From assembly GCA_013287815.1 (NCBI GenBank), contig JABDDC010000006.1, forward strand, positions 959 to 64,958: DNA of 64,000 nucleotides. Reading direction: 5' to 3'. Source of the DNA: Chlamydiota bacterium (GTDB lineage: Bacteria > Chlamydiota > Chlamydiia > Chlamydiales > Parachlamydiaceae). Below the pieces are notes generated by a model that ran no database searches, had not been told where the DNA came from, and was given only the letters and a program-made list of their open reading frames with translations. Below, piece after piece: positions 143 to 57,249 of the stretch; within the stretch, counting starts at the first letter, position 1, and every line of letters starts with the position of its first letter. Both the position numbers and the translations under genes were made by a program.

Positions 143-162
143 TATACTGCGGGGCGCTGAAA
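143..162. repeat. Solo terminal fragment of palindromic repeat family 2
   Basis: tatactgcggggcgctgaaa matches the left terminus of the element at 50988 (tatactgcggggcgttgaaa) with one mismatch. No partner arm is visible. Confidence 0.4.
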
Positions 163-242
163 AAAAATATTGAGCGAAAATTAATTTTAGGCCATAAGAA
201 GTAAATGAACCTAATTGCAAGACATATCAACAAGGATTAAAC

Positions 243-16913: not shown

Positions 16914-17336
16914 ATGAAAACAATACTTTCGATTGATGATGAACGTGACATGGAAATCCTTTTGAAATTAAATTTTGATAAACAGATTAATTCTGGTACA
17001 TATGCATTTGTTTTTGCACACAATGGCAAGGAGGCTTTGAATCTTTTAGATCAGGGGAAAAAATTTGATCTGATTATTACAGATCTTAACATGCCAGAGA
17101 TGAATGGGATTGAATTTTTGACCGAGCTTCACTTAAGAGTAGCCGAAGATAAACAGTTCAAAATTATTGTCATATCGGCATATAACGACATGGATAATAT
17201 CCGCCAAGCTATGAACTGTGGCGCTTGGGATTTTATCACAAAACCAATCAACCTCAGCGATTTGGAAGAAACCATTCAAAGAGCTTTTAAACCAAGAAAC
17301 GGCGATTGGAAAGGGATGCCAGATGCAATCTTTTGA
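16914..17336 (+). CDS. Single-domain CheY-like response regulator (C-terminus rewritten by a MITE)
   Basis: DLIITDLNMPEMNGIEFL, VISAY and FITKPI receiver motifs, with aaggag 8 nt upstream of the ATG. The last 13 codons (RNGDWKGMPDAIF) and the stop lie inside the inserted element. Confidence 0.85.
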   Translation: MKTILSIDDERDMEILLKLNFDKQINSGTYAFVFAHNGKEALNLLDQGKKFDLIITDLNMPEMNGIEFLTELHLRVAEDKQFKIIVISAYNDMDNIRQAMNCGAWDFITKPINLSDLEETIQRAFKPRNGDWKGMPDAIF

Positions 17337-17454
17337 TTCAGAACGCGTTAAGATGCGAGGAGAGCTTACCCATTTGGGTATGCCCCCCTTCGTCTCAACG
17401 CGTTATGAACCAAAATCTTGCGTCTGGCACCCCCTTCGAATCGCCGTTTCTTGG
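17292..17454. mobile_element. 163 bp MITE (repeat family 1) with 44 bp terminal inverted repeats and a TTAAA target duplication
   Basis: Left arm is 17292-17335 and right arm 17411-17454 (a few mismatches). An additional internal inverted repeat is gaacgcgttaagatgcgagg / ccttcgtctcaacgcgttatgaac. It is flanked by ttaaa (17287-17291) and ttaaa (17455-17459). Confidence 0.8.
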
Positions 17455-17480
17455 TTAAACCCTGATCTTAGTGATCATTA

Positions 17481-34289: not shown

Positions 34290-34393
34290 GGAAACTCCAT
34301 CTCCGGTTTTCGATTAAGAATATCTGTAATCATAGTCTCAATTTATTAAAAAATCACTTAATATTATTTATTTGTCAAGCAAAGCTATGGGCT

Positions 34394-34621
34394 CTGAGAT
34401 TCGGAGTAGGTACTTATCGTCATTATAACCGCGGAGCCACAGAGATCGCTGAGCAAACGCAGAGAGTTTTTTCTACGATCAAAATCTCTCTGCGCTTGCT
34501 CAGCGATCTCTGCGGCTCCGCGGTAAAATCTTCTATACAACTTTCTAGCCACCCCTTACTAGAGCCACTTTCCTATACCCAAACGGTAACTCTGACATCT
34601 CGTTCCTACTCCGAATCTCAG
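34394..34621. mobile_element. 228 bp MITE with perfect 17 bp TIRs, a 7 bp target duplication and an internal 38 bp hairpin
   Basis: The TIRs are ctgagattcggagtagg (34394-34410) and cctactccgaatctcag (34605-34621). atgggct occurs immediately outside both ends (34387-34393 and 34622-34628). The internal arms 34429-34466 and 34486-34523 pair at 36 of 38 positions. Confidence 0.75.
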
Positions 34622-34977
34622 ATGGGCTATCACCTGTCGCCCTCCGTTTCACTAGGGGCGCTCCGCATTCGCTCAGCTTAATTGTTATGACTCCACAGTA
34701 GCTGGCGATGATCATTCACCCATCCGCAAACCGATACAAGTTTGTCTGAAGAGCCTCCCAGGGGAAAAGAATAATTTCGCTAATTTCTCCCTAAGTCCGA
34801 ATTGCTGTGAAAAAATGTGTAACTTGTATTTTATTCCAATATTAATTAATGTACCGTTTTGAAGACTCGTAGGATTAATTCTTGTCAGGAGTTACATCAA
34901 GTATGGTATCTTATCTATAAACAAGGGAAGTATGTCCCATTTAACTGGACTAATTACTCGAAATCTGGAGAGTCGAA

Positions 34978-50932: not shown

Positions 50933-50987
50933 AGAGGTAGCTTGCATAAAAAAGTTTGGGAAATTGATACCGATCCTCCGATTAAAT

Positions 50988-51151
50988 TATACTGCGGGGC
51001 GTTGAAATTTTGCGTTTTACGCCGCGTGAAAGCTCTCGCGGTAAAACGATCGTCAGCGGGTTAATATTTATAATATGAACCCGTTGACGATCGTCGAATC
51101 CCGAGGCTTTGACGCTCTGGAAAACCCAAAATTTCAACACCCGGCAATATA
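50988..51151. mobile_element. 164 bp palindromic MITE-like element (repeat family 2), copy 1
   Basis: The two halves are inverted copies (tatactgcggggcgttgaaattttgcgtttt...acgatcgtcagcgggtt / aacccgttgacgatcgt...caaaatttcaacacccggcaatata). It ends 1 nt from the doc stop codon. Confidence 0.7.
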
Positions 51152-51152
51152 C

Positions 51153-51536
51153 CTATTTTGTTTTATCACTTTTTTTAAAAAAATGGGCTATTTCAGGCTT
51201 CTCAACTTTGCCATTAGCGCAGTGTATAATCATTTCTTCCATTTCGTAATCGTCATATTTTAAAATGACATGGTTAACTTCCAAAAAAGTTAAGGCAGCT
51301 ACTGTACCGGTTCGTTTATTTCCATCAATAAAAGGGTGGTTGCAAACAATGTGATAGAGATATGCTGCAGCTTGATCATAAATAGTAGGATGTAGAAATT
51401 CCCCGAACATGGAAGCTTTTGGCATTTCTATGGCAGAAATTAGTAGTCCCATTTCTCTAATCCCATGGGCTCCGCCAAACTCATTAATGATTTCGGTATG
51501 AAAATCGATCACTTCTTCTACTGACAAAAAAATCAT
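51153..51536 (-). CDS. doc: Doc-type toxin (Fic/Doc family)
   Basis: The HPFIDGNKRTG motif (Doc variant of the Fic motif), 127 aa length and a 4 nt overlap with the upstream small gene. Confidence 0.85.
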   Translation of the reverse strand: MIFLSVEEVIDFHTEIINEFGGAHGIREMGLLISAIEMPKASMFGEFLHPTIYDQAAAYLYHIVCNHPFIDGNKRTGTVAALTFLEVNHVILKYDDYEMEEMIIHCANGKVEKPEIAHFFKKSDKTK

Positions 51537-51766
51537 CTATTTGTCAACCTCTGAAGTAGTTCATATTTTTTTTTAAGCACCTTTCTAAAAGCTGACTTAA
51601 CTAAATTGTCATTTGTCGCTTGTACAGACTGAATAACCATACCTCCATTTGGATTAATCACTATTTGAAATAATGCATTTTCATCTAATCCCGCGGCTTG
51701 TAGCAAGGTCTTATCAATAACAATGGCTTTACTATTTCCACTCTGAGTCAATTGTTTGATTATCAT
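51533..51766 (-). CDS. AbrB/MazE/SpoVT-fold antitoxin partner of Doc
   Basis: 77 aa. LTQSGNSKAIVIDKTLLQAAGLDENALFQIVINPNGGMVIQ fits the swapped-hairpin AbrB-like pattern. ggaggag lies upstream. It overlaps the doc start. Confidence 0.75.
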   Translation of the reverse strand: MIIKQLTQSGNSKAIVIDKTLLQAAGLDENALFQIVINPNGGMVIQSVQATNDNLVKSAFRKVLKKKYELLQRLTNR

Positions 51767-51786
51767 ACTTTTCTCCTCCCCTCTTG

Positions 51787-51953
51787 TATACCCTGGCCTG
51801 CATCAAGATTCGAATTTCGACTGAGCCAAAGCCCCGGGGTTGAATCGATCGTAAGTCACCCCCATATTATTAATATTGGGTGACTTACGATCGTTCAACC
51901 GCGGGAGCTTTCGCGCTGTCCAAATTCAAATATTGATGCAGGCCTGGGTGTAA
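51787..51953. mobile_element. 167 bp palindromic MITE-like element (repeat family 2), copy 2
   Basis: Inverted halves are tataccctggcctgcatcaagattcgaattt...gttgaatcgatcgtaagtcaccc / gggtgacttacgatcgttcaacc...caaatattgatgcaggcctgggtgtaa. It shares the blocks acgatcgt and ccgcgNgagctttcNcgc with copy 1. Confidence 0.7.
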
Positions 51954-52189
51954 TTACAATGATATAACATAACATGATTTTTTGTCAATACGCTGCAAAA
52001 CGAGTCAGCAATTAGGAGTGGGTGTTAATTGCTGATGAAAACGAGTGAACATTGACAAAAATATACTTAAACCTTAAAATTTTGATTTTTCATTTTCTCC
52101 TTGACAGGAAAGGCTTAATTATTTAGGTTAGGGTTAAGATTAGTTTAGTTAAAAGCGCAGTAAAATGATTAATTAACAGGAGTCGATCA

Positions 52190-54670
52190 ATGAACTTTAT
52201 TCAAAAATTTGATGAATTAGGTAAGGATGATACGGCTTTAGCGGGAGGTAAGGGTGCTTCCTTAGGAGAAATGACCCAGGCAAAAATCCCCGTGCCTCCC
52301 GGCTTTGTTATACTAACCACGACCTTTGATAGATTACTTCAAGAAACAGAACTCGATGCCGAAATTACGGGAATTTTAGACTCGGTTAACCCCAAAATAA
52401 TCCATACTATCGAAAATGCCTCTGTACAAATTCAGAACTTAATTATTAACACATCTATGCCTGGGGATATAGAACAAGAGATCTTTTCATCCTTTAACAA
52501 TTTACGGTCAACATATGTTGCAGTGCGATCAAGCGCCTCGGCAGAAGACAGCTCATCGGCTTCCTGGGCAGGACAGCTTGATTCTTATCTTAACATCACT
52601 GAAAACAACTTGATTAAAAGCATTTTAAAATGTTGGGCTTCGCTCTTTACACCAAGGGCAATTTTCTATCGTTTTGAAAAAAGGATGCAAAACGAACCTA
52701 TTTCTGTTGCTGTGGTAATTCAGAAAATGGTTAATTCAGAACTCTCGGGAGTTGCCTTTTCTGTGCATCCTGTGACGGGAGACCATGAACAAATACTCAT
52801 TGAAGCAGGTTTTGGACTTGGTGAAGCAATCGTTTCTGGTCAGATTACTCCCGATAGCTACGTTGTCAGGAAAAAGCCTCTACACATCACAAACCTCCAT
52901 GTTAATGTTCAAACAAAAGCACTTTATCGCACTGAGGATGAAAATTTGGAAGAATTAAGTGCCTGGGAAACCCTTTCAGAAAAACAAGGAGCTCAACAAG
53001 TTCTTTCTGAACAACAAATTCTAGAACTATCAGAATTGATAATAAGAATCGAAAATCATTACAATTTCCCCTGCGACATCGAATGGGCTTTTGAAAATAA
53101 TGCCTTCTATATCGTCCAATCAAGGCCCATTACTACCTTAAAGACAAAACACAAAATTACCCCAATCATCCATGAGGAGCCAAAAAAAACCGGCTTAATT
53201 AAAGACGAAATTATGATTATGCGTGACCGATATGTTCCGTGTATATGGCCCCGATTTGCTATTACCTGGAAAGGGTTTGGTGATGTATACAAAGATGCAG
53301 GTATAACCGGATACACTCACATATGCCTCTATGACAAAGGGGAATTTCAGTCATTCCATCCCAAAAAAAACTTTGATGATTTCGCATCATATAATCTTAA
53401 TTTGCTCTTTAGTAAATCATTTGGTGACTTAAAAAAAATTCGGCAAAAAGGAATAGTTGCAGCAAAAAAGGCCAAAGCATTCTGTAAGGAATTTTCCAAA
53501 AAAGCTATTACTAAAATTGACCCTTATATAAAATTTTTAGATGAACTTATTCAAGTATATGGCGAAGTCGGTCGTGATAATGCCCGTTATTGGTTTTCTA
53601 CAAATTATATAATAGAGCAAGAGATCAAAAAATGCCTGGAAAAATACAACTATGAACAAATTCTAGAAATTTCACGTATAATGTCGCAATTAAACGAGCC
53701 ATCTTATAGTGAAGTTCAAGAGATGGATTTTGATCAAATGCTAGAAGAATATAAATCGAACAAAAACAAAAATGAGCTTAAGAAGACAATAGAAGCTTTT
53801 GTTGATAAATATTTTTGGTTTCCATATGAGTATATTGGTCCAGCGATTTGGGATTTTGATGCCGTTGTAAAAAGACTTGAAACCGGGAATTCTTTTCATG
53901 CATCTAGGGACTATAAATCAATAGCCAGGGATCAAAAGGCCTGTATTAAAAAATATTCCCTTTCGAAAAAAGTTGTGAAGTTATTCGGAATCAGCCAACT
54001 TCTGGCCCTTATGCGCGATGACAGAAAGTCCCTCATGTCGGAAACCTGTTACTATTTAAACGGAATTATTTTGCCAAATTTAGCCAAGTTATTGACAGTA
54101 TCCAGAGATAAGATTTTGTATGTCGATTCAGAAGTACTTCGAATGTTTAAAAAAGATCCCGACAAGGCAATCTCCATCCTCAAAGAACGGTCCGGTTTTT
54201 GTCTCTTCTACGCAATGATGAAAAACAGCTACGAATCAAAATTACTGCAGGGTGACGAAGCGCGTCAAATGATCAAAGAGATGGGAATTAATTTAAAAAC
54301 CGATCAGCAGGTCATCCAGGAGATTAAAGGCCAAAGTGCGTGCAAAGGAAGAGTTATCGGCAAAGTAAAAATCATGAAGACATCTCAGATTAGTTCATTT
54401 GAAGATGGTTTAATTCTCGTAACAGGAATGACTACCCCGGATTTTCTCCCCTTAATTAAAAAATCGGCAGCCGTTATTACAAACGAAGGTGGAGTGACTT
54501 GCCACGCGGCTGTCATTGCGCGAGAACTTGACAAACCCTGTATCATTGGCACAAAAATTGCGACCAAAGCTCTTCATGATGGAGACACAGTGGAAGTGGA
54601 TGCAGACAACGGGATAATAAGGGTTTTAGAACTCTTTTCCAAACCCGCTGTTACCCCTAAGGCTGCTTAA
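52190..54670 (+). CDS. PEP-synthase-like dikinase-type phosphotransferase with rifampin-phosphotransferase-like architecture (paralog 1)
   Basis: N-terminal PPDK_N ATP-grasp (AGGKGASLGEMTQAKIPVPPGF, VAVRSSASAEDS, CWASLFTPRAIFYR, DIEWAFENNAFYIVQSRPITTL). An unassigned roughly 400 aa central region. A C-terminal swivel domain with GGVTCHAAVIARELDKPCIIG. There is no PEP/pyruvate TIM-barrel domain. Confidence 0.8.
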   Translation: MNFIQKFDELGKDDTALAGGKGASLGEMTQAKIPVPPGFVILTTTFDRLLQETELDAEITGILDSVNPKIIHTIENASVQIQNLIINTSMPGDIEQEIFSSFNNLRSTYVAVRSSASAEDSSSASWAGQLDSYLNITENNLIKSILKCWASLFTPRAIFYRFEKRMQNEPISVAVVIQKMVNSELSGVAFSVHPVTGDHEQILIEAGFGLGEAIVSGQITPDSYVVRKKPLHITNLHVNVQTKALYRTEDENLEELSAWETLSEKQGAQQVLSEQQILELSELIIRIENHYNFPCDIEWAFENNAFYIVQSRPITTLKTKHKITPIIHEEPKKTGLIKDEIMIMRDRYVPCIWPRFAITWKGFGDVYKDAGITGYTHICLYDKGEFQSFHPKKNFDDFASYNLNLLFSKSFGDLKKIRQKGIVAAKKAKAFCKEFSKKAITKIDPYIKFLDELIQVYGEVGRDNARYWFSTNYIIEQEIKKCLEKYNYEQILEISRIMSQLNEPSYSEVQEMDFDQMLEEYKSNKNKNELKKTIEAFVDKYFWFPYEYIGPAIWDFDAVVKRLETGNSFHASRDYKSIARDQKACIKKYSLSKKVVKLFGISQLLALMRDDRKSLMSETCYYLNGIILPNLAKLLTVSRDKILYVDSEVLRMFKKDPDKAISILKERSGFCLFYAMMKNSYESKLLQGDEARQMIKEMGINLKTDQQVIQEIKGQSACKGRVIGKVKIMKTSQISSFEDGLILVTGMTTPDFLPLIKKSAAVITNEGGVTCHAAVIARELDKPCIIGTKIATKALHDGDTVEVDADNGIIRVLELFSKPAVTPKAA

Positions 54671-54703
54671 GCACCCCCAATTGGGCCGAGACAAAATAAC
54701 TAT

Positions 54704-54732
54704 TTGACATCTACATTCGAGTATCTTATGGT
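54704..54732 (+). promoter_or_regulatory. Candidate sigma70-type promoter for the second dikinase-like gene
   Basis: TTGACA (54704-54709), a 17 nt spacer, then TATGGT (54727-54732), 61 nt upstream of the ATG. The -10 hexamer lies inside the first copy of the direct repeat. Confidence 0.3.
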
Positions 54733-54779
54733 ACGAATAAAAGTAAATCAAGTATCTTATGTTACGAATAGAAGTAAAT
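54721..54779. repeat. Two tandem 28 bp direct repeats (31 bp period) in the leader of the second dikinase-like gene
   Basis: gtatcttatggtacgaataaaagtaaat (54721-54748) and gtatcttatgttacgaatagaagtaaat (54752-54779) differ at 2 positions. Confidence 0.6.
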
Positions 54780-54792
54780 TGGAAAAAAAATT

Positions 54793-57249
54793 ATGAGTAT
54801 TACAAAAAAATTTGAAAGCCTAAGCATGCACGATAGTGATATAGCAGGTGGAAAAGGAGCCTCTTTGGGTGAAATGACCCAAGCGAAAATCCCTGTGCCC
54901 CCTGGGTTTGTTATACTCTCCTCTGCATTTGATAGATTCCTTGAAGAAACAGAGCTCGATGCAGAAATTGATGGGATCCTGGATTTCGTAGATATCAATA
55001 TGGTTCATACCATCGAAAATGCCTCCAAAAAAATTCAAAATTTGATCATAACCTGTCATATGCCCGATGACATTAGGCAAGAAATAATGGGGCCCTTTAA
55101 AGATTTAGGTGCGAAATATGTAGCCGTACGCTCAAGCGCATCAGCAGAAGACAGTGCCGCAGCAGCCTGGGCGGGACAGCTTAATAGCTATCTTAATGTG
55201 ACGGAAGAATATCTGATTATCAGCGTTCTAAAATGTTGGGCTTCACTCTTTACTCCTCGTGCAATTTTCTACCGAGTTGAAAAGAAGATGCATGACGAAC
55301 ATATTTCTGTTGCAATCGTTGTTCAGAAAATGGTTAATTCCGAAGTCGCAGGCATAGCCTTTTCGGTCCATCCTGTCACTGAAGATTACAATCAAATGAT
55401 CATTGAGGCCGGTTTTGGGCTAGGTGAGGCAGTTGTTTCCGGCCAGATTACTCCTGACAACTACATCATAAAGAAGGAACCCCTCCATATTACAAACATC
55501 CACGTGAAGGTGCAGAGTAGATTACTTTACCGTGTAGAAGACAAGGAGCTTGAGGATCCTAATATTTGGAAAACTCTTTCAGTCGAAGAGGGATCCAGAC
55601 AAGCCCTTTCCAAAGAACAAATTCTCGAGCTAGCCAAAATCATTCTTAGAATTGAAAAACATTACAAATTCCCATGTGATGTAGAATGGGCTTATGAGAA
55701 TCAAAATTTCTATATCGTACAGTCAAGGCCCATCACGACCTTGCAACCAAAGCAACACAAGAGTGCTGATTTAATATCAGTCACCGAAAGCTCCAAAATG
55801 ACCTCTAAGGAACAAAAAAAAATCAGTGAAGGTAAATATCGCTGGAATGTACGCCGCGACAGATATATCCCTTGCATATGGCCGCAAATCACGCATTATA
55901 ATCCAAGATTTTATAAATATACAGAAATTGATATTCCCGTGATTCATGCAACTATTTGGGAAAAGGGATATTGTAAGGTGCTAAGAGAGGAAGAATGCGA
56001 TAAAAAACTTGGGGAAAAGCAACTTAACATCCTCCTTCAACAATCTGCTAACTTAAAAAAAATTAGAGAAAAAGGAATCACTACGTGCACCCTGGCTTTA
56101 GATTTCTGCAAGGAGTTTTCTAAAAAAACTTATGAGAGGATAGACCCTTATATTAAATTTTTAGATGATTTTATTCCATTATATGAAGCAGTCATGTGGG
56201 ATAATATGATTTTCTGGGTTCTTACAAACACACCTCTTGAGAAAAGAATCATGACGCACCTCCAAAAATATAGTGAGGATGAAAGACAAGAAATAATTAA
56301 TACAATGTTTCAACTGACCACGGACTCTTATAGTGAAATTATTGAGGATGAATTTCAAAAACTTTTGAAGGAATTTAAGTCCGGTGAAGAAAAAAAAGAA
56401 CTTAGAGAACATATTAAAAACTTCTCTGATAAGTATTTTTGGTTTCCGTATGAATATGTAGGGCCTGGGATTTGGGATTTTGATACAGTTGTCAAAAAAC
56501 TTGAAACAAGCGAATTAGACCATAAGGAGAAAGATTATGTGTCTATAGTAAATAATCAGAAGGCATGCATCGAAAAATACTCCCTTTCTGATGAGATCGT
56601 GACCTTATTTAAAGTCTTCGAATTGACAGCCCTGATGCAAGACGACAGGAAGGGAACAATGTCTGAAACTTGCTACTACTTAAACGGTATTATTTTGCCG
56701 AAGTTAGCTGAGTTACTCGCTGTTTCAAGAGAAGAAATATTGTATGTCGACCAGGATATCCTCCGGCTTTATAAAAAAGACCCAGGCAAGGCAATCTCCA
56801 TTTTGCGCGAGCGAGTCAATTTTACACTGTTATTTCAAATAGATCAGGAAGTAACAATCGTAGAAGGGGAAAAAGCGCGCCAGATGGTCGAAGAATTAGG
56901 GATAGTCTTGCATGAGACTCATCCTGATTCAAAAAAAATAAATGGTCAAATAGCTAATAAAGGAAAGGTTGTCGGTAGAGCGCGTATTTTGAAAACGTCT
57001 CAGATCGATTCATTTGAAAACGGGTTAATCCTTGTAACCGGGATGACGACACCGGATTTTATGCCGCTCGCAAAAAAGGCGATTGCCTTAATTACAGATG
57101 AAGGAGGAATCACGTGTCATGCCGCTATCATTTCACGCGAACTGAATATCCCCTGCATCATAGGCACCAATATCGCAACCAAAGTTCTTAAAGATGGTGA
57201 GTTGGTAGAGGTAAATGCAGATCAGGGTGTGATTAATATTTTAGAGTAG
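54793..57249 (+). CDS. PEP-synthase-like dikinase-type phosphotransferase (paralog 2)
   Basis: It has the same three-part architecture as 52190-54670, with long identical blocks (GGKGASLGEMTQAKIPVPPGFVIL, YFWFPYEY.GP.IWDFD, MSETCYYLNGIILP, LILVTGMTTPDF). The swivel His is in GGITCHAAIISRELNIPCIIG. Confidence 0.8.
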   Translation: MSITKKFESLSMHDSDIAGGKGASLGEMTQAKIPVPPGFVILSSAFDRFLEETELDAEIDGILDFVDINMVHTIENASKKIQNLIITCHMPDDIRQEIMGPFKDLGAKYVAVRSSASAEDSAAAAWAGQLNSYLNVTEEYLIISVLKCWASLFTPRAIFYRVEKKMHDEHISVAIVVQKMVNSEVAGIAFSVHPVTEDYNQMIIEAGFGLGEAVVSGQITPDNYIIKKEPLHITNIHVKVQSRLLYRVEDKELEDPNIWKTLSVEEGSRQALSKEQILELAKIILRIEKHYKFPCDVEWAYENQNFYIVQSRPITTLQPKQHKSADLISVTESSKMTSKEQKKISEGKYRWNVRRDRYIPCIWPQITHYNPRFYKYTEIDIPVIHATIWEKGYCKVLREEECDKKLGEKQLNILLQQSANLKKIREKGITTCTLALDFCKEFSKKTYERIDPYIKFLDDFIPLYEAVMWDNMIFWVLTNTPLEKRIMTHLQKYSEDERQEIINTMFQLTTDSYSEIIEDEFQKLLKEFKSGEEKKELREHIKNFSDKYFWFPYEYVGPGIWDFDTVVKKLETSELDHKEKDYVSIVNNQKACIEKYSLSDEIVTLFKVFELTALMQDDRKGTMSETCYYLNGIILPKLAELLAVSREEILYVDQDILRLYKKDPGKAISILRERVNFTLLFQIDQEVTIVEGEKARQMVEELGIVLHETHPDSKKINGQIANKGKVVGRARILKTSQIDSFENGLILVTGMTTPDFMPLAKKAIALITDEGGITCHAAIISRELNIPCIIGTNIATKVLKDGELVEVNADQGVINILE

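Follow-up and report, generated by a model that had tools for sequence, protein, structure and literature searches.

The termini of the Correia elements of Neisseria begin with TATAG, and their transcripts are processed by RNase III. These elements (CREE/NEMIS) are found on both the 5′ and the 3′ sides of genes, are co-transcribed with them and have reported effects on promoters and on mRNA stability (PMC3184786). In Enterobacteriaceae, ERIC/IRU and ERIC-like (YPAL-type) repeats occupy the 3′ regions of genes, where they are co-transcribed and can change mRNA decay (PMC3184786), and Coxiella burnetii carries QMITE1 and QMITE2, families of about 50 copies, which come in large and small versions and lie in 3′ UTRs or overlap the ends of ORFs (PMC5896051). 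Finally, in the known mobilisable MITE composites, IMU and NFM2-MITE, the copies are identical and a single 5-bp duplication is present at the outer ends; for IMU, mobilisation has been obtained experimentally (PMC3184786).

The window analysed here, that is, the whole 64-kb stretch of DNA, comes from a Parachlamydiaceae MAG. On its minus strand, at 51153-51766, lies an intact operon of doc and its antitoxin that, as the original prediction had described, is flanked by two palindromic elements, E1 and E2 (Table 1). Their spacing had also been given correctly, with E2 starting 20 nt from the antitoxin ATG and E1 ending 1 nt from the doc stop codon (51153-51155), and only the length of E2 has to be corrected, from 167 to 166 nt. 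This geometry had been taken for that of a composite unit able to move the toxin-antitoxin module, but our analysis favours, with a probability of about 0.75, two independent MITE hits on a resident, single-copy operon.

Table 1. Features of the doc/antitoxin locus and of a related remnant, in window positions.
Feature	Position	Strand	Remarks
E1, palindromic MITE	50988-51151		164 nt; body 50990-51149 (160 bp); TA at 50988-89 and 51150-51
doc toxin gene	51153-51536	-	127 aa; Fic/Doc fold; HPFIDGNKR motif; intact; alignment with 24 homologues
Antitoxin gene	51533-51766	-	77 aa; 4-nt ATGA overlap with doc
Shine-Dalgarno GGAGGAG of the antitoxin	51773-51779	-	outside E2; predicted unpaired in the fold of the predicted leader
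E2, palindromic MITE	51787-51952		166 nt; body 51789-51950 (162 bp); TA duplication 51787-88 and 51951-52
Native promoter of the operon (predicted)	51953-51995	-	-35 TTGACA 51988-51983; -10 TATCAT 51964-51959; promoter scan 11/12
Decayed family mini-variant	143-176	+	TATACTGCGGGGCGCTGAAA...TTGAGCG; right terminus missing; L011 has a comparable mini-element of 48 nt that is intact

The doc/antitoxin operon

The Doc protein matches both Pfam PF02661 (Fic/DOC; 6.7e-20, 72 bits, cutoff 24) and TIGR01550 (DOC_P1; 1.1e-17, 64 bits, cutoff 38.65), and its HPFIDGNKR motif is invariant across the homologue alignment. With a domain above the curated threshold and the HxFx(D/E)GNKR motif, the product is, as judged from its sequence, a type II toxin of the Doc (Fic-fold) class. 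Truncation of Doc by E1 was considered and rejected, as the Doc domain is complete and the C-terminal tails are variable among homologues.

The antitoxin is conserved as a 77-aa partner in homologous doc cassettes, and its N-terminal domain is probably of the AbrB/MazE type (doc_partner family). This assignment comes from weak matches: to TIGR02609 (doc_partner) at 7e-4 and 19.9 bits, below the cutoff of 55.9; to PF04014 in four of ten antitoxin homologues, all sub-threshold (best 8.7e-4); and to AbrB/MazE chains in the PDB at E = 0.1-0.6, with 7d2n_E at E = 0.1. A single-sequence AlphaFold model of the antitoxin (pLDDT 61) was too poor for structure search.

Exact-protein look-ups returned no protein identical to Doc, to the antitoxin or to the M50/cNMP protein encoded next to E1, and the sole match of the PPDK-like protein was to this genome itself, where the contig is broken within E2. 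Likewise, no syntenic relative of the M50-PPDK locus was found; the homologues of the M50/cNMP protein (65-43% identity) and the relatives of AroC (86%) were not syntenic.

A mosaic family of TA-flanked palindromes

E1 and E2 had been described as diverged members of one family, and their shared blocks bear this out. The two are 62% identical overall; within each of them, the two termini match each other at 25 of 30 positions, and the 30-nt termini of one match those of the other at 13-14. All three ACGATCGT octamers of the window fall within these two elements. Family members share TA-flanked TAYAC termini, blocks of GAAAGC, CGCGG and CGATCG and an AT-rich loop, in a mosaic arrangement, and in a comparison of four members, 38 of the 73 pairs of the whole-length hairpin show compensatory change. 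The predicted RNA folds are very stable in both E1 (MFE -87.5 kcal/mol, z = -12.4) and E2 (MFE -105.4, z = -15.1), and the 75-nt arms of E2 are 80% complementary; as a chance control, shuffled sequence contained no comparable palindromes. A solo terminus at 143-162, also part of the original prediction, proved equally sound (no matches in 100 shuffles).

The family is multicopy. In X1, the one public run that holds the locus, the E1 terminus has a depth of about 1950 against 65-81 for single-copy sequence, that is, about 25-fold, and at the left boundary of E1 (50987/50988) at least 11 contigs diverge exactly, each with a different flank. The outer arms of E1 are of the abundant TACTGCGGGGCGTTGAAATTTTGCG type, and elements in L002, L006, L007 and L013 match its first 31-55 nt with 94-100% identity. 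Five of 13 matches in genome contigs belong to Chlamydiae/Parachlamydiaceae MAGs, other than the one studied here, and include variants of 166, about 100 and 48 nt, all of them TA-flanked. A cyanobacterial origin of the window, which the CGATCG motifs might suggest, is ruled out by the taxa of these matches and by the homologues of Doc and AroC. We estimate about 10-30 copies per genome. Between genomes whose AroC is only 72% identical, the outer 55 nt of the family are 94.5% identical. In L013, L006, L100 and L007, as at E1, members lie 1-38 nt after stop codons.

On these sequence features, namely terminal inverted repeats, dispersed copies and a small size without a transposase, E1 and E2 belong to one mosaic MITE family. 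Their interiors have only ORFs of 40-62 codons, which are read-throughs, and no transposase gene. No description of this family was found in the open literature searched; the only Rfam hits were sub-threshold and to generic hairpins (miRNA precursors), and no copies were found in plasmid and phage collections or in IMG/VR. Nor was a transposase with matching ends found: the 20 window ORFs scanned included no transposase, tnpA or RAYT gene, and the only transposase next to a family member, a DDE_Tnp_1 that abuts a truncated copy in L007, shows no matching ends. We infer mobilisation in trans by a TA-duplicating transposase of the IS630/Tc1-mariner-like kind. On an autonomous IS of the family, the ends would be expected to read TACTGCGGGGCG or TACCCTGGCCTG.

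Alternatively, these could be hairpin-dependent repeats (REP/RAYT-like or IS200/IS605-type) that insert 3′ of a TTAC/ATAC-like tetranucleotide without any duplication. Whole-length hairpins with strong covariation would suit such a mechanism, as would the TTAC at the E2 empty-site junction, where a TACA microhomology (see below) permits a duplication-free model. However, in the nine copies examined, TA adjoins each preserved end on the outside, irrespective of the sequence beyond it. Their termini are symmetric, whereas in IS200/IS605 derivatives the left end differs from the right, and the window ORFs scanned include neither tnpA nor a RAYT gene. We therefore regard this mechanism as very improbable.

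The insertion site of E2 and the origin of the bracketing

In homologous doc cassettes, a conserved promoter, TTGACA-N17/18-TATCAT, is followed by the palindrome TTGTAA(T/G)TACAA directly before the ribosome-binding site. At this locus, TTGACA-18-TATCAT at 51988-51959 is the best sigma-70-like promoter of the region and lies just outside E2. A promoter inside E2 was rejected, as the candidate matches at only 9 of 12 positions and its -10 box overlaps the start codon. Thus, of the two alternatives in the original prediction, a transcription start within the upstream element or beyond it, the predicted promoter points to the second. The palindrome TTGTAATTACAA, presumably the operator of the antitoxin, is split by E2 at TTGTAAT^TA^CAA, with the promoter-side part at 51959-51953 plus TA and the remainder (TTG) at 51784-51786. 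The promoter-side junction regenerates 11 of the 12 positions of the palindrome (as the variant GTGTAATTACAA). Most probably, the operon continues to use its native promoter.

When E2 and one TA are removed, the sequence becomes ...TATTGACAAAAAATCATGTTATGTTATATCATTGTAATTACAAGAGGGGAGGAG..ATG, colinear with the cassettes of L020 (TATTGACAAAAAAAACTATTTGTCATATCATTGTAATTACAGAAGGGGAG), L016, L022, L021 and L104. This comparison was made by explicit excision and MAFFT alignment, and its references are homologous cassettes of other organisms, not alleles; blastn homology to them extends only from 51995 to the doc stop codon. As the promoter and most of the putative operator lie outside E2 and the sequence is contiguous once E2 and one TA are taken out, E2 is, on this comparison of filled and empty sites, a simple insertion with TA duplication into the operator/5′ UTR of the operon. 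The 4-nt microhomology TACA at the junction means that the length of the duplication is formally 2-4 nt. Both elements are TA-flanked; for E1, insertion at a TA is deduced from these flanks, and the comparison of filled and empty sites covers E2.

These results bear directly on the proposal that E1 and E2 are the ends of a transposase-moved unit carrying the toxin-antitoxin genes, like IMU- or MITE-flanked integrons. Two related palindromic elements do bracket the 614-bp cassette, both outer junctions are TA, and MITE pairs mobilising cargo have precedent (PMC3184786). The outer TA flanks nevertheless tell nothing either way, since E1 and E2 each come with a TA duplication of their own. E2 lies inside the cassette, between the conserved promoter/operator and the ribosome-binding site, so the bracketed segment is devoid of a promoter and cannot have arrived at the locus as a unit. 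Additionally, E1 and E2 are diverged and have dissimilar termini, whereas the copies of IMU and NFM2-MITE are identical, and in lying directly behind a stop codon E1 behaves as members of its family typically do. The cassette was not found elsewhere with the same flanks either: in X1, the only run holding the locus, it is a single contig of single-copy depth (65), and none of eight homologous cassettes (L015 (89%), L103, L104, L020, L016, L021, L022 and L023; Doc identity about 58-89%) has E1- or E2-type elements. Near-identical flanking copies, a cargo ending at the inner ends of the elements and more than one locus would mark a composite, and none of the three was found. Recombination between E1 and E2 was also considered and rejected, as the shared blocks measure only about 26 nt. 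As an account of how the operon arrived here, the composite is largely refuted and we give it hardly any credence; the bracketing is ordinary mobile-element litter and not a vehicle for toxin genes.

Is it plausible that two members of one family would land so close together by chance? Two members 636 bp apart are somewhat unlikely under uniform insertion, with about 0.1-0.4 such operons expected per genome. Given this low expectation at 10-30 copies, some local preference (for AT-rich, 34.5% GC, dispensable DNA) has to be assumed. By contrast with that single-family estimate, the genome as a whole is loaded with at least three MITE families (two further ones have about 25-35 and about 60-75 copies), and the window alone holds four full long palindromic/TIR elements and one remnant, so two neighbouring insertions are not improbable.

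A different history would be that E2 was already in the leader of the cassette when the latter was horizontally acquired from a chlamydia rich in E2-type elements, and that only E1 inserted locally. The outer arms of E2 (TACCCTGGCCTGCATCAAG) are nearly unique in this genome, with about 1-2 copies in X1 against about 25 for E1-type termini, and the sequence closest to its core comes from a different genome (L100, 87% over 86 nt). The toxin-antitoxin cassette has a GC content of 34.5% against 41% for the window, and doc cassettes are widely shared among Chlamydiae. However, the leaders of all eight homologous cassettes are free of the element, and we consider this history unlikely.

According to the preferred reading, two non-autonomous palindromic MITEs of 160-162 bp, inserting at TA dinucleotides and duplicating them, would have hit the resident operon independently. 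E2 would have landed in the TA of the putative operator, between the -10 box and the ribosome-binding site, and E1 1-3 nt after the doc stop codon, the usual position for the family, in the space that separates doc from a convergent M50/cNMP gene (stop 50932). A search of RNA-seq runs returned none that contains the locus. The mRNA would, on this reading, start at about 51952, the edge of E2, which would form a leader hairpin of about 160 nt with the Shine-Dalgarno sequence free, while E1 would form a 3′ hairpin. Transcription presumably runs through both elements and, by analogy with Correia and ERIC elements, the hairpins may affect the processing or stability of the mRNA.

It might be further supposed that these hairpins set the stability or processing of the toxin-antitoxin mRNA, as RNase III/RNase E targets or as exonuclease barriers, and that the bracketing has been selected. 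The compensatory changes, the free Shine-Dalgarno sequence in the predicted leader fold and the regenerated operator positions could all be read in this way, and there are known cases of mRNA stability being altered by MITEs within the transcript (PMC3184786, PMC5896051). On the other hand, decay has brought the complementarity of the arms in both copies down to about 80%, and the homologous cassettes function without such elements. Palindromy, moreover, is seen throughout the family, wherever its members lie, and consequently says nothing specific about this operon. Selection of the bracketing thus seems quite unlikely to us. Similarly doubtful is a broader scenario, prompted by the 94.5% identity of the outer 55 nt and by the compensatory changes, in which a hairpin-dependent mobile lineage would be exchanged among environmental chlamydiae with amoebal hosts in common. 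In this scenario, E2 would have rewired the control of doc by adding a 160-nt processing/stability hairpin, while the Shine-Dalgarno sequence stayed free and the operator retained 11 of its 12 positions.

Significance and comparison with known systems

A vehicle for a toxin-antitoxin module built from MITEs was an attractive reading, but a wrong one, and it is now removed. The use of homologous cassettes of other organisms as empty-site references is a general method. What is documented instead is a Parachlamydiaceae MITE family with mosaic subfamilies, in which the TA flank is fixed, lengths of 48, about 100 and about 165 nt occur, and members strongly tend to lie right after stop codons. Short-read assemblies of chlamydial MAGs break at such repeats, E1 and E2 in Logan contigs being two examples, and its copies can add codons and stops to genes, as in L100, and may alter the expression of neighbouring genes.

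As for the operon, it resembles Phd/Doc-type type II modules in its Fic/Doc-fold toxin with HxFxDGNKR, in the small upstream antitoxin with a 4-nt overlap, and in having a palindromic candidate operator behind its promoter. It differs in its antitoxin, which does not resemble Phd and whose AbrB/MazE matches stay below curated thresholds, and in the 162-bp element that interrupts its operator and leader. With the IMU and NFM2-MITE integron composites, the locus shares two MITE copies bracketing a short cargo, although here the copies are 62% identical, one of them is inside the transcription unit of the cargo, and the cargo is single-copy.

Among the repeats, Correia elements are similar in their size of about 100-160 bp, with TA at both ends and several size variants (PMC3184786). 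They belong to another phylum, have no sequence similarity to the chlamydial family, and consist of 26-bp TIRs around a non-palindromic core, whereas in the chlamydial elements the palindrome runs from one end to the other. In this respect, ERIC/IRU and YPAL-type repeats are alike: they measure about 127-170 bp, form imperfect palindromes throughout and have a 5′-TA-3′ motif at both termini (PMC3184786), but the sequences are unrelated, and the chlamydial family has tens of copies per genome and mosaic subfamilies. QMITE1 and QMITE2 are likewise MITE families with size versions in an obligate intracellular bacterium; their direct repeats are variable, of 2-3 nt or 7-11 nt, in contrast to the fixed TA of the chlamydial family, and their sequence and host phylum are different.

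The doc/antitoxin operon and its flanking palindromes

The two-gene toxin-antitoxin (TA) operon in 50988-51953 is intact and lies on the minus strand, between the palindromic elements E1 (doc 3′ side) and E2 (antitoxin 5′ side). On sequence criteria, the identification of the toxin as Doc can be considered secure. Its profile scores (Pfam Fic/DOC, 6.7e-20; TIGR01550, 1.1e-17) both exceed the curated cut-offs, and the HPFIDGNKR motif is invariant in an alignment of 25 homologues. The AbrB/MazE-type label of the antitoxin is plausible but weak: it scores 19.9 bits against TIGR02609 'doc_partner' (cut-off 55.9), PF04014 gives sub-threshold matches in 4 of 10 homologues, and PDB AbrB/MazE chains are matched with E = 0.1-0.6.

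Features of the doc/antitoxin locus
Feature	Position	Strand	Characteristics
E1, long imperfect palindrome	50988-51151		RNA MFE -87.5 kcal/mol, z = -12.4
doc toxin gene, 127 aa	51153-51536	minus	Pfam Fic/DOC + TIGR01550
Antitoxin gene, 77 aa	51533-51766	minus	4-nt ATGA overlap with toxin gene
E2, long imperfect palindrome	51787-51952		RNA MFE -105.4, z = -15.1

The spacings in the original prediction (E1 1 nt from the doc stop, E2 20 nt from the antitoxin ATG) are correct, and the sequence blocks that it described as common to both elements are present, as is its solo terminus at 143-162. The latter is a decayed copy of a mini type, comparable to a 48-nt hairpin in a Parachlamydiaceae MAG (L011).

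The Doc homologues carry the names Parachlamydiaceae, Rhabdochlamydiaceae or Protochlamydia, and for the chorismate synthase of the window, every named homologue is Parachlamydia or Parachlamydiaceae (73-77% identity). The gene content is ordinary chromosomal (shikimate pathway, RND efflux, LRR and cNMP-binding proteins), with no transposase in the 20 window ORFs scanned. In 52190-57249, there is also a tandem pair of paralogues (826 and 818 aa) that have PPDK_N and PEP-utilizers domains; PhoU_div, PHO4 and a dienelactone hydrolase-like gene come after this pair.

The E2 insertion site and the native promoter

Metagenomic homologous doc cassettes were used as references to test the end of the cassette. 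In these, a conserved promoter, TTGACA-N17/18-TAT(C/T)A(T/C), is directly followed by the palindrome TTGTAA(T/G)TACAA, a Shine-Dalgarno sequence and ATG. The promoter predicted in the window, TTGACA-18-TATCAT (11/12), is found at 51988-51959, outside E2, in agreement with the second alternative of the original prediction, namely, that TA transcription starts beyond the upstream element. When 51789-51950 and one TA dinucleotide are deleted in silico, the sequence becomes ...TATCATTGTAATTACAAGAGGGGAGGAG...ATG, which is gap-free and colinear with the cassette in L016 (TTGTAAGTACAAGAAGGAGG) and matches that in L020 (ATATCATTGTAATTACAGAAGGGGAG). Nucleotide homology to other cassettes is confined to the stretch between 51995 and the doc stop. 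As excision restores the promoter-palindrome-RBS order of the homologous cassettes, E2 is a simple insertion into the operator/5′UTR with duplication of a TA dinucleotide (51787-88, 51951-52); a 4-nt microhomology, TACA, at the junction makes a duplication of 2-4 nt formally possible. TA duplication is a trait of IS630/Tc1-mariner-type transposases, and its presence suggests mobilisation by an enzyme of this type; a parent element for the E1/E2 family was not found.

The promoter-side junction regenerates 11 of the 12 palindrome positions (GTGTAATTACAA), and the leader is predicted to fold into a self-contained hairpin with GGAGGAG unpaired. The two insertions leave both genes, the promoter, nearly the whole palindrome and the ribosome-binding site intact. 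Transcription is predicted to start at the edge of E2, about 7 nt past the -10 box; the resulting mRNA would include both elements, with E2 forming a hairpin in the leader and E1 one at the 3′ end. By analogy with Correia and ERIC elements (PMC3184786) and QMITE elements (PMC5896051), which are co-transcribed with genes, these hairpins could alter mRNA processing or stability. A T-rich tract (CCTATTTTGTTTT) comes after E1 on the plus strand, and both together could also contribute to termination of the convergent M50/cNMP gene.

An 11-nt inverted repeat, ATTGACAAAAA, is common to the divergent promoters of the TA operon and the PPDK-like gene (51979-52061), and between these promoters there is a hairpin with a 10-bp stem, TCAGCAATTA...TAATTGCTGA (52005-52035), with direct repeats, AAAACGAGT, on either side.

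Copy number and relatives of the E1/E2 family

Of the public runs, X1 (labelled soil metagenome) alone contains the locus; its Logan contigs were placed on the region. Summed depth is ~1950 at the E1 terminus (50986-51021), against 65-81 in the flanks, and 50987/50988 is the exact point at which at least 11 contigs part into different sequences. Repetition is only 2-3-fold in the E1 core and ~8-fold in 51885-51911, a block common to both elements. The E2 outer arms are repeated 1-2-fold; given that this genome has hardly any other copies of them, E2 may have been part of the leader already when the cassette was acquired. The contigs break inside both elements (L001, from the same genome as the window, at 1-38; X1 contigs at 50995, 51050, 51821 and 51915), isolating the operon on its own 775-nt contig, an example of how repeats fragment chlamydial MAGs.

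A scan of one genome per GTDB species with a degenerate 20-mer of the terminus gave 13 matches. Five are in Chlamydiae/Parachlamydiaceae MAGs and belong to TA-flanked elements with ends TATACTGCGGGGCG as in E1; the other eight, in unrelated taxa, match over only ~20-23 nt and are within the chance expectation, which we estimate at ~17. Together, X1 depth, differing flanks and copies in other chlamydial MAGs confirm a real, multicopy, mobile-type family. Relatives vary in size, from a full palindrome of 166 nt (L013) to ~100 nt (L006) and the L011 mini-hairpin, and the element in L100, from another relative, has a core 87% identical to that of E2 over 86 nt and outer arms of a third type. The family is thus a mosaic in which outer arms and cores can be exchanged. 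Common to all members are TA + TAYAC ends, GAAAGC..CGCGG blocks, CGATCG, an ATATT loop and a length of ~160 bp, and 38 of 73 hairpin pairs (E1, E2, L013, L100) have compensatory changes. Between E1 and the L013 element, identity over the outer 55 nt is 94.5%, although AroC of the two organisms is only 72% identical, which suggests that the ends are constrained or that there has been exchange between lineages. The elements were not found in Rfam, plasmid, phage or IMG/VR searches, nor was a description of chlamydial MITEs in the literature searched.

Some copies have particular surroundings. In a Chlamydiae bacterium MAG (DAIDIM010000095.1; L002, 1-130), 38 nt separate the end of a member from the probable downstream start (GGAG..ATG) of a gene with a Fic domain (PF02661, 3.5e-09), a second case of a member 5′ of a Fic/Doc-family gene. 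The L100 element (2654-2819) occupies the entire spacer of two convergent genes, provides the final codons and stop of a Peptidase_C65 gene, and has its first 8 nt (TACCGAAG) repeated in the right flank. In L007 (5871-7725), a DDE_Tnp_1 (IS4-like) transposase gene is found 38 nt from a member that has lost its right terminus, and insertion of this IS into the MITE is a possibility. Immediately 3′ of the doc stop in L104 (901-925), there is a 17-nt hairpin, CACCCCAGGCTGGGGTG, with arms similar to the E2 termini (CACCCAGGCC), which may be a coincidence or a mini-variant.

Double insertion and the composite-transposon reading

The genome carries a heavy load of MITEs: besides E1, E2 and the remnant at 143, the window contains two further MITE-like elements. 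One (17287-17459), from a different family, is palindromic over its whole length of 173 nt, with ends TTAAACCAAGAAACGGCG...; it overlaps the 3′ end of ORF 16914-17336 and has ~25-35 copies in X1 with many flanks. The other (34392-34624) is a ~230-bp element with 17-19-bp TIRs (CTGAGATTCGGAGTAGG / CCTACTCCGAATCTCAG) that encloses a 97-nt palindrome (34428-34524) and belongs to a family of ~60-75 copies in X1; a 1284-nt X1 contig with both ends of this type and 1181 nt between them may be its full-length parent IS. A 275-nt palindrome in L011 (4408-4682), with 131-nt arms 93% complementary, is unrelated in sequence to E1/E2.

Assuming ~2,500 intergenic spacers, at least 100 elements of all families would leave several operons per genome with both spacers occupied, while the E1/E2 family alone (10-30 copies) gives ~0.1-0.4 doubly flanked operons. 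As this expectation is low, some local preference (AT-rich, dispensable DNA; the cassette has 34.5% GC, the window 41%) has to be assumed, although the value does not call for a special mechanism. That E1 lies only 1 nt from a stop codon is in keeping with its family: members lie 3 nt past aroA (L013), 12 nt past coaE (L006) and 17 nt past a patatin-like gene (L100, which also overlaps the Peptidase_C65 stop), with a spacing of 38 nt in L007.

Thus, the observation, the MITE family and the promoter beyond the element all stand, but the proposed MITE-flanked composite that moves the TA module does not. For this locus it is largely refuted, as the cassette promoter is missing from the bracketed segment; the sequences to the left and right of E2 form one continuous whole, which excludes arrival of the block at this site as a unit. 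It is also contradicted by the dissimilarity of E1 and E2 (termini agreeing at 13-14 of 30 positions) and by the TA genes, which are single-copy in X1 (one contig, depth 65). Such elements are absent, at the sides that can be seen, beside eight homologous cassettes, the closest being those in L015 (89% Doc, 86% nucleotide identity), L103 (84%) and L104 (79%). In the mobilisable IMU and in the NFM2-MITE composites, the flanking copies are identical and there is one outer duplication (PMC3184786), whereas E1 and E2 are 62% identical.
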